A stretch of 39,435 bases of DNA from a virus: UHGV virus genome UHGV-1377012, one strand, 5' to 3'. The translations under genes and the position numbers were made by a program. Of the stretch, positions 2,047-39,248 are shown piece after piece; position 1 is the first letter of the stretch; each line of letters starts with the position of its first letter. The notes under the pieces were generated by a model. The model ran no database searches. It had not been told where the DNA came from and saw nothing but the letters and a program-made list of their open reading frames with translations.

Positions 2047-2061
2047 TTACCCTAGAGGTGA
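2047..2061. promoter_or_regulatory. Palindrome TTACC-CTAGA-GGTGA (one mismatch to TTACC-N5-GGTAA), candidate operator
   Basis: Lies 6 bp past the esterase stop and upstream of the holin-like gene; a minus-strand TATAAT (1991..1996) and CCACATATGG (2006..2015) lie between it and the holin start. Confidence 0.5.
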
Positions 2062-2066
2062 TTTGC

Positions 2067-3443
2067 CTAAATTTCTATCTCAAACGGAAGGCAATAATTC
2101 AGCATGCAATTGTCTGCATGATAGCGATCTTTAAAATGATTTGGGAATTCATCACTATCGCAAAGCTCTCCTATCCGTGACTCTTTAAGATAACTCACCG
2201 TACCTTTAAGGCCGGAAGTATTGATGCTCACAGTATCATCTGAAATGATCTTAACGTCGCTAGCAGATAGTTTTTTTCCTGTGAAATGAAAACCCATAGG
2301 ACAACCATCTTTTATAAATGAATACATTCCGTTGAGGGTTTTTCTAAATTGCAATGGCTTCACAGGAATATTAAATTTTATAATAATGCTGTTACCATCG
2401 ATAGAATGTGATTTATAACATAGAGGTGACCATGATGAACCTGACAACTTACTAGTTAAATACGCCTGTGCCATTTTTTCGCCATGTGCACGCTGGGCAT
2501 GTGGGTACATATGAATTTCGTTCGTCAGGTGATATCTTGGGCCAGAGATGTACATCTTAATGCCGGAATGTTTTGCTTCATCATGGGCCATGCGTTGCTC
2601 GACGTTAAGACCAAAGTGTGAGTTTATCCTTCTACCTTCGGTTTTAAAACCATGCCAACAGTAATTGCTTTGCTCAAAAATAAACTCTGGCTCTTTGCCC
2701 TGCCCTGTGATTTTTACAATATCTTTAACGTAATCATTTCTGAATGATAGAAGTTTTTCAGAATATCCTTTAGGGGCGATGGCATCATTTTCCCCCTGAA
2801 TCCAGAAGATGCCATCAACTTGAATATCACTTTTGATAATATCTTTTATTTTTTCGAGCATCCACATACCGTTCAGATAAGGGTAGCGGAATTTTGGCTC
2901 GCGATAATAAAGCAGTGATTTATTTCCTGATACTACATTGTAGTCAGAAGACTCTTTAGTTAGAGGTTTGTTATAGTTGTCACCATTAAGAATTAAATCT
3001 TTGCTAGGCTTAATAAGTTGCTCTATATACTGGGATCCCCTTCCGTGCCCGAAGATAATAAGATTGTCATTTGGAAACGCTTTTGAGATATGTGAAATTA
3101 TTCCGTATACAGGCCCTTCTCCTGCATCAATACCAAATGCCATTCTGTCTAAATTGGTTAAGCTTGCGCCGCCTGAGGACAAAGTAAATGCACTTGCCAA
3201 ATCAGTTGTGATGAATTTACTACCGTCTCTCTCACCCTCATATGATTCAAGATAAGAATCCCATGGGCTTGGTGTTCTCCATGTCTGTGAATAATCAACG
3301 GTTCCTGTTGAGTTGGATTGTCCGTAAATAATGAATACGCGGTTTTTCCTTCCAGCAACAAAATCTGCAAAAAGAAGACCAGATCCTGACAGCGCGCCGA
3401 TGGCCGCAGCTAATTTAATAAAATTTCTTCTGGAAACTGACAT
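2067..3443 (-). CDS. Secreted SGNH/SASA-family esterase (sialate O-acetylesterase-like), Tat signal peptide
   Basis: N-terminus MSVSRRNFIKLAAAIGALSGS is a twin-arginine signal; IIYGQSNSTG matches the GQSN catalytic block of SASA/SGNH esterases; visibly AT-rich; start moved to the ATG at 3443 with GAGGTG upstream. Confidence 0.65.
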   Translation of the reverse strand: MSVSRRNFIKLAAAIGALSGSGLLFADFVAGRKNRVFIIYGQSNSTGTVDYSQTWRTPSPWDSYLESYEGERDGSKFITTDLASAFTLSSGGASLTNLDRMAFGIDAGEGPVYGIISHISKAFPNDNLIIFGHGRGSQYIEQLIKPSKDLILNGDNYNKPLTKESSDYNVVSGNKSLLYYREPKFRYPYLNGMWMLEKIKDIIKSDIQVDGIFWIQGENDAIAPKGYSEKLLSFRNDYVKDIVKITGQGKEPEFIFEQSNYCWHGFKTEGRRINSHFGLNVEQRMAHDEAKHSGIKMYISGPRYHLTNEIHMYPHAQRAHGEKMAQAYLTSKLSGSSWSPLCYKSHSIDGNSIIIKFNIPVKPLQFRKTLNGMYSFIKDGCPMGFHFTGKKLSASDVKIISDDTVSINTSGLKGTVSYLKESRIGELCDSDEFPNHFKDRYHADNCMLNYCLPFEIEI

Positions 3444-3482
3444 AAACACCTCAAAAACGTCCTTGTTAATGAGGATATCACA

Positions 3483-37932: not shown

Positions 37933-37934
37933 AA

Positions 37935-39191
37935 TTATTTATTACTGCCTTCCATCCACCTCTCAAACTTCGACGGGGAGAACGGAATCAGATCCGTATG
38001 CTCCCCGTTAATCCAGGAATCAATCATATCGGACCACTGCTGCAACATGTAGGCGCGCTGTCTGGCGTATTCCGCTTTGTTATATACGGCGCGCACACCT
38101 TTCTGCTCATGTGCCAGAGCCTTTTCAATCCAGTCTGAAGGATAACCAGCCTCATGCAACAACGTACTGGCTGTACGGCGCATATCGTGTACGGTGAAGT
38201 CCTGAATATGCTCACCATCTTCATTTATTATTTTCACCGTTCTGTCGATCAGAGAGTTCAGCGCGGCATTAGATAATGGCTTCCTGAAATTGTAACGACC
38301 AGGAACCAGATATTCACTTCCACCAGCGCACATCTGCAACCCGACCAATATATCCTGAGCCTGTTTAGGCAGGTAAATAACATGCGCCCGGCTTCCCTTC
38401 ATGCGGTCTGAAGGAATTGTCCATGTCCATTTTTTAAAATCTATTTCATCCCACGTTGCATTGGTGAATTCGCCTTTACGAACCATAGTGATAAGCACCA
38501 GCTTTAAAGCCATTTTCATAGTGCCCATAGCACCAATGGCATCCAGCGTGCGGAAGAACAGACCAATTTCTTCTGGTGTCAGTGTTCGCTCTCGTGGTTT
38601 AAATATGGCGATAGACGAAGGTTTAATGTCAGCAGCAGGATTAAACAAACCATGACCACGGTCATTGGCGTGACGGTATACGCTGCTGATGATCTCCCTG
38701 GCCTGTACTGCTGTTGCCCGACCACCGCGTTCGACAATCCGGTCACACAAATCACGAACCATCGATGTGGTAATTTCAGCCATCATTTTGTTGCCAAGAA
38801 CCGGAAGTATGTCACGGTCGATCACCGCCTGCTTCATTGCGCGGGTACTTTCAGCCAGGATGACGTGTTTCATATAACTGTCGGTATGTACCGCAAACGT
38901 CTCGGCACCACGAATCTTTTTGATACCGTCACGTTTAGCCGCAGCCGGCGACTGGCCTGCTTTAAGCAGCTTCTTTGCAGCAATCAGTTCTTCTCGCGCT
39001 TCTGCCAGGCTGATACCGTCACGCCCATACTGCCCGATTACCAGTGTTTCGCGGCGACCGTTGATACGGTAGTCATAGCGAAACGAGACCGTACCTGACG
39101 TAAGCACAGCTACATACAGCCCGTCACGATCGGAAACTTTGTACAGTTTGTCCTGTGGCTTGAGGTTTTTTAATTTTGTATCGGTAAGCAC
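37935..39191 (-). CDS. int: Tyrosine integrase (site-specific recombinase)
   Basis: 418 aa; C-terminal catalytic region with HDMRRT and a downstream conserved Tyr; GTG start; adjacent to attR. Confidence 0.9.
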   Translation of the reverse strand: MLTDTKLKNLKPQDKLYKVSDRDGLYVAVLTSGTVSFRYDYRINGRRETLVIGQYGRDGISLAEAREELIAAKKLLKAGQSPAAAKRDGIKKIRGAETFAVHTDSYMKHVILAESTRAMKQAVIDRDILPVLGNKMMAEITTSMVRDLCDRIVERGGRATAVQAREIISSVYRHANDRGHGLFNPAADIKPSSIAIFKPRERTLTPEEIGLFFRTLDAIGAMGTMKMALKLVLITMVRKGEFTNATWDEIDFKKWTWTIPSDRMKGSRAHVIYLPKQAQDILVGLQMCAGGSEYLVPGRYNFRKPLSNAALNSLIDRTVKIINEDGEHIQDFTVHDMRRTASTLLHEAGYPSDWIEKALAHEQKGVRAVYNKAEYARQRAYMLQQWSDMIDSWINGEHTDLIPFSPSKFERWMEGSNK

Positions 39192-39233
39192 AATTCACCC
39201 GTATAAAAACCATTTTCATGACGGTATGAGAGT

Positions 39234-39248
39234 ATACCTTTAAGGTAA
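39234..39248. promoter_or_regulatory. Palindrome ATACC-TTTAA-GGTAA (one mismatch), candidate operator at the integrase promoter
   Basis: 43 bp upstream of the integrase start; overlaps the ATACCGTCACC repeat. Confidence 0.45.

Follow-up and report, generated by a model that had tools for sequence, protein, structure and literature searches.

A dispersed palindrome as the candidate operator of a prophage-wide repressor in a phiV10-like Uetakevirus prophage

Why does one short palindrome recur at the junctions between the transcription units of a prophage, and which protein reads it? The question is raised by the virus genome UHGV-1377012, a stretch of 39,435 nucleotides (nt) that is called the window below, in which a 15-bp palindrome, TTACC-N5-GGTAA, had been noticed in an earlier reading of the letters alone (the original prediction). 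Since an exact att core is found at both of its ends, the window is a complete integrated phiV10-like (Uetakevirus) prophage of ~39.3 kb flanked by att repeats; the same 17 bp form the attP/attB core of phage ZX5, at the 3' end of guaA (PMC9782041). The immunity region of the window is 97-98% identical to those of phiV10, PAS61 and phiv142-3, of the genus Uetakevirus, while its portal protein shares 99% identity with phiV10-like phages and 80% with epsilon15.

Both strands were scanned for TTACC-N5-GGTAA, with dinucleotide-preserving shuffles as the null, and sites are named here by their first position. Nine perfect copies were recovered, starting at 5939, 22880, 23496, 26537, 30312, 30374, 32705, 33417 and 33479, precisely as in the original prediction; the expectation from the shuffles was 0.01, and none of 100 shuffles reached nine. 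When up to one mismatch was allowed the count rose to 14, against 0.73 expected and a shuffle maximum of three. This wider set differs slightly from the one first proposed: 2047, 32320, 32657 and 39234 are indeed one-mismatch copies, but 32688 (TTACCTATGGGGTGC) carries two mismatches, flanked as it is by two good sites, and a copy at 26519 had been missed. On a gene map curated from the list of open reading frames and the annotation of close relatives, which assigns 93.1% of the window to genes, none of the 14 copies touches coding sequence, though non-coding DNA makes up only ~7% of the window. The chance of this outcome is, by our own arithmetic, ~0.069^14, or roughly 5e-17, and the claim that every copy is intergenic is borne out. 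In the comparison of coding and intergenic density that had been set beforehand, coding sequence held the motif only at background level; matches with two mismatches fall nearly all inside genes and behave as background, and none of the sites is buried within a long operon, remote from any junction. A symmetrised profile from three divergent genomes widens the consensus to A-TTACC-N5-GGTAA-T, with an A/T-rich N5 and a dyad base that is A/T in 96% of cases.

Of the 14 sites, nine fall outside the immunity region; inside it the motif is grouped in a set of three between the divergent rep and cro genes and in a pair at the early-left promoter, as would be expected of an immunity operator. The description of the copies as lying within ~60 bp of a start codon fits about half of them, several others being 80-105 bp away. 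Similarly, a position directly after a hairpin terminator was confirmed for 23496, 26537, 30374, 32320 and 33417, which lie 12-22 nt past a rho-independent terminator and before the next gene, but not for the others, 39234 being found at 65 nt. The non-coding status of 26519 and 26537 hinges on TerS starting at the conserved ATG 26516, which the 26519 copy abuts and whose ribosome-binding site it overlaps. The equivalent ATG is the annotated start in epsilon15, ZX5, Tyrion and SPC32H and is probably the true one; in the phiV10 record (DQ126339.2) TerS is annotated at 41-715 (224 amino acids (aa)) from a longer TTG start, and runs over both operators. The motif may serve as a cheap marker for transcription-unit boundaries and true start codons in the genus, phiV10 TerS being one example.

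Comparison with relatives revealed that the same sites are present throughout the group. In the GenBank record of epsilon15 (NC_004775 / AY150271), seven 'protein_bind' features bear the label 'repressor' and the note 'lysogeny': one before TerS, one before gp3, one between gp19 and the tail fibre gene, three at early-left and one before the Holliday-junction resolvase gene. The sequence at these coordinates reads ATTACC-N5-GGTAAT, and the labelled sites 12-27, 2931-2947 and 19895-19911 are the counterparts of the TerS operators, 22880 and 5939, respectively. The novelty that had been claimed for the dispersed operators is not upheld, since these sites are already annotated there; the finding is known in kind, its details being uncharacterised, and a full-text literature search for the motif string turned up no paper. 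Our scan of epsilon15 returned 15 copies with at most one mismatch, and those unmarked in the record include a group of three in the interval from rep to gp39, the second member of each pair (among them the one beside the resolvase site), the lysis-cassette site and an int-proximal copy. At the same threshold phiV10 and ZX5 hold 14 copies each, SPC32H 18 (a few inside genes), Tyrion 15 and Klebsiella phage BUCT711 13. Homologous junctions are occupied in all six of these phages, and the motif was found in the immunity regions of all relatives examined.

Individual sites differ somewhat in their distribution. Site 2047 has counterparts at the corresponding position in phiV10, Tyrion and SPC32H, and a perfect one in epsilon15 (alignment A5), while 32320 is shared with phiV10, ZX5, Tyrion and the Klebsiella phage and is missing from epsilon15 and SPC32H. 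The motif again stands at corresponding junctions in two distant prophages with a Rep of 54-55% identity; when all 5-N(0-8)-5 palindromes of one of these were counted without bias, TTACC with a spacer of five was the only one enriched. Rep homologues down to 54% identity keep TTACC-N5-GGTAA, including some with a substitution in the putative recognition helix or a five-residue insertion beside it. Footprint alignments of six junctions (p06/portal, tailspike, lysis cassette, int, TerS and DUF1064/resolvase; 5-6 genomes each) revealed that both half-sites are invariant, whereas the N5 and most of the flanks differ. Invariant half-sites with drifting spacers argue for sequence-specific recognition by a protein rather than for an RNA stem.

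The best candidate for this protein is the phage repressor, Rep. It is 100% identical to the phiV10 and ZX5 repressors and shares 42% identity with the epsilon15 and SPC32H repressors (43% with that of epsilon15 by alignment). Rep aligns over its full length to the crystallised SPC32H Rep (PDB 5D50, E=4e-42, residues 1-190), its C-terminal part corresponding to the tetramer-forming region, and its putative recognition-helix region, ANLVNRW..G.K.IG..AR.IE, is invariant (alignment A3). Pfam detected helix-turn-helix (HTH) families only in Rep, and no peptidase S24 domain. The SPC32H Rep tetramer is reported to bind palindromic DNA, each DNA-binding pair being drawn from different dimers (PMC9638917); its tetramerisation domain shares a fold with the looping repressor Rco, and its repression mechanism 'has not been extensively characterized' (PMC9986798). 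Overexpression of the ZX5 repressor left no free phage and reduced the transcripts of holin and endolysin by >99.9% (PMC9782041), a result that fits direct or indirect control alike. The window also encodes a close relative of the SPC32H small antirepressor, Ant, behind a LexA box (Table 1). In the SPC32H switch, LexA reportedly keeps the small antirepressor down, and the antirepressor is said to inactivate a repressor that itself escapes cleavage in the SOS response; the Rep of the window, of the SPC32H/epsilon15 type, is likewise not known to be cleaved then.

Taken together, these observations make it likely, in our judgement, that the palindromes serve as operators through which Rep directly silences nearly every unit, and that LexA-controlled Ant releases all of them together. 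The notion of one immunity-region operator spread over the genome is well supported by the three-fold rep/cro cluster, the same junctions in relatives and the epsilon15 annotation. In a lysogen, Rep would bind A-TTACC-N5-GGTAA-T with two N-terminal HTH domains touching half-sites one helical turn apart. The operators would lie on or around the sigma70-type promoters of almost all units, namely cro/early-right, early-left, the replication and DUF1064 restarts, terminase, the portal/head operon, tailspike, ant, lysis, one cargo gene and probably int, and a single protein would silence the entire lytic programme directly, not merely the top of a cascade. One Rep tetramer could grip two operators at once, which would explain the 62-bp pairs that enclose promoters, the 17-18-bp tandems, and the combination of full site and half-site at late promoters. 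Upon induction, DNA damage would clear LexA from 5991-6010, Ant would be made and Rep would leave all sites together. The SPC32H Rep/Ant switch, too, probably acts at many promoters at once and not only in the immunity region.

Several observations weigh against this reading. The lysis-side site of phiV10 lies 40 bp from the start of oac, which according to the phiV10 record acetylates the host O-antigen and acts in superinfection immunity; expression of oac in the lysogen is thereby implied, and a bound site need not mean silencing. At the portal, tailspike and lysis units the full sites lie 50-62 bp upstream of a conserved promoter box, and simple occlusion does not explain repression there; it would need half-site pairing, in which an upstream-anchored tetramer reaches the box, or some other mechanism or factor. 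The 39234 copy may belong to the att arm, a Rep operator and an arm site being comparably likely at this position. Finally, a Cro-like protein encoded beside rep is more conserved than Rep (76% against 43% identity to epsilon15), and because the motif never changes the two proteins are inseparable by co-variation.

For the int-proximal copy, 39234, a cluster of arm-type sites for Int or Xis within the att arm is a fair possibility, which we place somewhat below an even chance. The copy sits between the att core at 39382-39398 and int, nested in the inverted repeat GACGGTAT...ATACCGTC; its GGTAT 'mismatch' is identical in six genomes, which suggests that GGTAT itself is selected, and in the epsilon15 record the adjoining 10-mer is an integrase-binding site while the counterpart of 39234 is not called a repressor site. 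On the other hand, the N5 of 39234 varies between genomes around a fixed TTACC/GGTAT, the footprint seen at the operators, and a repressor site before int is biologically sensible. As for the proposal that the integrase is under the same repressor, a copy does lie upstream of int, but its embedding in the att-arm inverted repeat leaves the assignment ambiguous. The surrounding block, 39225-39265 on the minus strand, reads GACGGTAT-TACC-TTAAA-GGTA-TACTCTC-ATACCGTC, with four GGTAT/ATACC-like half-sites, and is nearly invariant in six genomes.

The Cro-like protein may be the main or an additional reader of the dispersed sites, in the style of lambda CI and Cro with another order of affinities, lowering early transcription during lytic growth; we regard this as possible, if rather doubtful. 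Its gene and rep point away from each other on either side of the tripartite operator; the protein is a member of phrog_35 ('transcriptional repressor'), and its putative HTH segment, AGTTSHYIQTHLTG(R/K)R, does not vary among five genomes. However, the protein has no Pfam match, the epsilon15 record credits the sites to the repressor, and it is Rep that is described as binding palindromic DNA as a tetramer (PMC9638917). The two assignments are compatible, and a role for the Cro-like protein would not be exclusive of one for Rep.

Promoters were sought at every site with a consensus scanner and by eye, and the assignment is convincing for cro, early-left, DUF1064, TerS and cargo, and ambiguous for p42, rep and the late units. 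The cro promoter (TTGTTA-17-TATTAT, 32674-32646, minus strand) has site 32657 filling its -35/-10 spacer. At early-left, a terminator (33380-33399) is followed by operator 33417, a -35 at 33451-33456 (ATCTATTGACA), a -10 at 33474-33479 and operator 33479, in that order; the promoter reads TTGACA-17-AATCAT (33451-33479), with 33417 lying 19 nt upstream of its -35 and 33479 beginning at the last base of its -10. The DUF1064 unit repeats this layout: a terminator (30420-30401), the operator at 30388-30374, ATCTATTGATT as the -35 (at 30351), an A/T-rich -10 and the operator at 30326-30312, which holds the Shine-Dalgarno sequence of the DUF1064 gene, 3 nt from its ATG 30308. This arrangement and its 62-bp spacing are kept in six genomes, even with a different downstream gene (alignment A8); across seven genomes, 13 of the operator pairs at the two paired promoters are 62 bp apart and one is 63 bp apart. 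The TerS tandem comes after a terminator (26588-26571) and an extended -10-like TGGTACTAT (26559-26551, minus strand), and 22880 overlaps the -10 position of a plus-strand TTGACA promoter (22858-22863, its TTGAC unchanged in six genomes) that is directed into the variable cargo region. A nine-base element, ATCTATTSR, has four copies in the window, all of them immediately next to operator sites or between two of them.

The original prediction likened this arrangement to the stoperators of mycobacteriophage L5, at which repressor bound within units, especially past terminators, would halt elongating RNA polymerase. Such sites are asymmetric and orientation-dependent, and act on elongation away from promoters. 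The spread of the palindromes over early and late regions and the five copies just past terminators recall that system, but the sites are perfect palindromes with symmetric flanks, so that the orientation dependence that defines stoperators is inapplicable. Where a promoter is recognisable, they sit in its -35/-10 spacer, abut the -10 (TATACT at 23511 is a further -10-like element beside a site) or bracket the promoter, as the conserved 62-bp pairs do. A stoperator role consequently appears improbable, and what is seen is the classical geometry of promoter and operator, with pairing or looping likely and a block to elongation not suggested. Within 90 bp of each lone site no second full operator was found, only conserved half-sites, at -50 from 5939 and -62 from 22880. 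A tetramer with two DNA-binding pairs would suit both the 62-bp pairs (~6 helical turns) and the tandem sites 17-18 bp apart, and these offer a concrete geometry for a tetrameric repressor on DNA; pairing or looping across the 62 bp is suggested by the conserved spacing.

The late units share a box of their own. The sequence CATATGTGGTT-N5-GGTAAT is found exactly at 5888-5909 and 22817-22838 and as a variant at 1991-2012. The box contains TGGTT and one canonical operator half-site, is unchanged in six genomes from four host genera, conserved far beyond the neighbouring coding sequence, and is unannotated in the records examined. As a full site stands ~50-62 bp upstream of this conserved box, which has no good -35, the upstream palindrome could be the activator site of another regulator, and the candidates are indeed encoded (the phrog_536 protein at 26638-26976 or a PerC-like protein). 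Such a role is nevertheless hard to credit: it would require two unrelated proteins to read an identical 17-bp consensus, the same sequence is clearly in repressing positions at early promoters, and the distances from site to box (50, 53 and 62 bp) do not keep one helical phase. The least credible proposal, in which the palindromes act in RNA as hairpins or signals for processing, or are just short stretches of homology labelling the junctions of modules for recombination, can point to hairpins of 5-8 bp at module boundaries with variable cargo between some of them, but it is rejected as regards hairpins on their weak predicted energies (-1 to -5.6 kcal/mol) and fixed stems with no compensatory changes among aligned relatives, which point to protein recognition, and further by the location of several sites upstream of the likely transcription start and the poor recombination homology of a 15-bp site with a variable centre.

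How far the cargo genes are covered is a related question, as copies had been claimed at all three AT-rich cargo loci under the same repressor. This applies to the 23496 locus, and probably to the divergent promoter at 22880, but not to the 460-aa esterase gene, which has no site upstream, 2047 lying at its 3' end; this gene is probably read through from the tailspike gene. The positions of all features are collected in Table 1.

Table 1. Positions of the palindromic sites, promoter elements and genes discussed in the text; aa, amino acids
Feature	Position	Strand	Remarks
Operator-like site, one mismatch	2047-2061		Upstream of lysis cassette (p27 ATG 1941), just past the stop of the 460-aa cargo gene
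Perfect operator	5939-5953		Divergent region between tailspike gene (ATG 5834, minus strand) and ant (plus strand)
Perfect operator	22880-22894		91 bp upstream of p06/portal operon (ATG 22789, minus strand)
Perfect operator	23496-23510		Between terminator 23458-23473 and TATACT -10-like hexamer 23511-23516; upstream of 296-aa cargo gene (ATG 23543)
Tandem operators, 18 bp apart	26537-26551 (perfect); 26519-26533 (one mismatch, TAACCACCGTGGTAA)		Before TerS
Operator pair, 62 bp apart, both perfect	30374-30388 (distal); 30312-30326 (proximal)	-	Brackets DUF1064 promoter
Operator-like site, one mismatch	32320-32334		14 nt past cro-like gene terminator (32368-32349); upstream of p42 and replication genes
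Tripartite operator	32657-32671 (one mismatch); 32688-32702 (two mismatches); 32705-32719 (perfect)		cro-like/rep intergenic region; spacings 31 and 17 bp
Operator pair, 62 bp apart, both perfect	33417-33431 (distal); 33479-33493 (proximal)	+	Brackets early-left promoter; p39 ATG 33513
One-mismatch copy	39234-39248		43-49 bp upstream of int, inside att arm
ATCTATT(G/C)(A/G)	5929-5937 (-); 30351-30359 (-); 32334-32342 (-); 33446-33454 (+)		Contains -35 hexamer of early promoters
Late-promoter box, tailspike, CATATGTGGTT-N5-GGTAATAGAAT	5883-5909	-	One canonical half-site GGTAAT; begins 50 bp from start of operator 5939
Late-promoter box, portal operon, CATATGTGGTT-N5-GGTAATAATTT	22812-22838	-	TGGTT-N5-GGTAA core starts 62 bp from operator 22880; invariant in 6 genomes
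Variant promoter box, lysis cassette, CATATGGTTTATTGTGTATAAT	1991-2012	-	Box through start codon invariant across 5 genomes
LexA box, TACTGTATATTTATACAGTT	5991-6010	+	Before ant; one mismatch to consensus, none expected by chance
Ant, small antirepressor, 85 aa	6030-6287	+	86% identical to SPC32H Ant (E=7e-56)
Rep, 194 aa	32775-33359	+	N-terminal HTH; middle HTH_3 domain
Cro-like regulator, 76 aa	32390-32620	-	phrog_35 'transcriptional repressor'; candidate second reader of the sites
460-aa cargo gene	2067-3449	-	SASA-type carbohydrate esterase, TAT-like signal; replaces phiV10 O-acetyltransferase gene; co-oriented with tailspike gene
296-aa cargo protein	23543-24433	+	Function unassigned, phrog_13369; between terminase and portal modules
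att core, ATTGAGTGGGAATGATT	38-54; 39382-39398		Exact 17-bp direct repeat, marks prophage ends

Beyond the sites marked in epsilon15, the present analysis adds a fuller site list, the invariant architecture of the 62-bp pairs, the late-promoter box, and the constancy of the operator though Rep has diverged to 42% identity. A bolder proposal, which we put forward tentatively, is that Rep is a direct genome-wide silencer of all ~12 units, the late genes among them, with single tetramers clamping either operator pairs, as 62-bp micro-loops around a promoter, or a full site and the conserved hybrid half-operator TGGTT-N5-GGTAAT, which overlaps the late-promoter core, and that the operator code is frozen genus-wide. 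It would be frozen because ~15 dispersed sites would have to change together; phages infecting Escherichia, Salmonella, Klebsiella, Enterobacter and Serratia share one and the same operator, although their Reps have diverged to 42% identity. Members of the group might then be homoimmune, and Ant, being far better conserved, could cross-induce them, while relatives would be excluded by O-antigen modification, not by repressor specificity. The divergence of Ant and Rep from their SPC32H counterparts is discordant (86% against 42% identity), which suggests possible cross-induction between phages of different hosts, as far as can be read from the sequences. The C-terminal, Ant-binding region of Rep keeps a conserved motif, YD..Y..LP..EK.KI..I.F.

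The prophage type is a common one. Its portal and/or immunity sequence was detected in 543 of 5426 complete E. coli genomes, mostly both together, and a prophage type present in about one in ten such genomes gains a ready operator map. All phages of the collection whose portal reaches 60% identity encode a Rep homologue too, and a chimeric portal and immunity query against the 5426 genomes gave no portal-only prophage among the matches listed. In NZ_CP040090.1 the portal gene and rep lie within 2.8 kb of each other, probably in a deleted remnant. According to the literature retrieved, phiV10 is the basis of an O157:H7 reporter phage. Elsewhere in the window, short-repeat arrays occupy 31587-31726, inside the DnaT-like replication gene: 12-bp TGGTTAAATGAC repeats are followed by 24-bp units on the inverted repeat ATCCCGTTTTTGGGAT (2.6 perfect copies) and then by an array of 18-bp period of the related unit TCCCGTTTTTGGGTACAT (3.2 copies, 80% match). 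These repeats look like lambda-style origin iterons embedded in an initiator gene.

How does this operator set compare with known systems? The window has every sequence-level defining feature of a Uetakevirus Rep operator set that was compared, namely membership of the group, a Rep homologue, the operator at homologous junctions, a LexA-controlled Ant and the lack of a self-cleavage domain. epsilon15, of the same genus, shares ATTACC-N5-GGTAAT and matching junctions, and differs in that its record marks only seven sites and in a repressor only 42% identical to that of the window. With the SPC32H switch (PDB 5D50, 5D4Z) the window has in common a full-length Rep homologue with no S24 domain, an Ant at 86% identity, a LexA box before ant and the palindrome at the same junctions, though the SPC32H Rep, unlike its Ant, is only 42% identical overall.

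Lambda likeness lies in the tripartite operator between the divergent repressor and cro genes (32657/32688/32705) and the second cluster at 33417/33479. However, lambda CI is cleaved after RecA activation, whereas no S24 domain was found in Rep by Pfam, and the operators extend far outside the immunity region. In common with lambda CI and with pLS20 Rco, which loops across ~75 bp (PMC9986798), an oligomer would bridge two operators that flank or enclose promoters; looping across the 62 bp in the window is what we infer from the spacing. The mycobacteriophage L5/Bxb1 group has multiple asymmetric operators (PMC1934351). Both that group and the window carry one repressor site repeated throughout early and late regions, but the sites of the window are palindromic and on promoters, whereas stoperators are asymmetric and away from them.

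In phage P1, one immunity repressor, C1, acts at many scattered promoters with an antirepressor route to induction, its operators being asymmetric 17-mers bound by a monomer. The scattered promoters under one repressor and the antirepressor are shared with the window, the asymmetric operators are not, and C1 is unrelated to Rep. In phiC31, a short conserved inverted repeat (CIR) is bound by the c repressor at its own promoter and in many intergenic regions, often next to promoters and terminators. The dispersed intergenic inverted repeats are the point of likeness here, the repressor family, the host and the sequence being unrelated. Nothing in these results overturns current understanding, dispersed operators being known from P1, phiC31 and the L5 group. 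By analogy, the arrangement in the window resembles the C1 operators of P1 and the CIRs of phiC31 more closely than the stoperators of L5.

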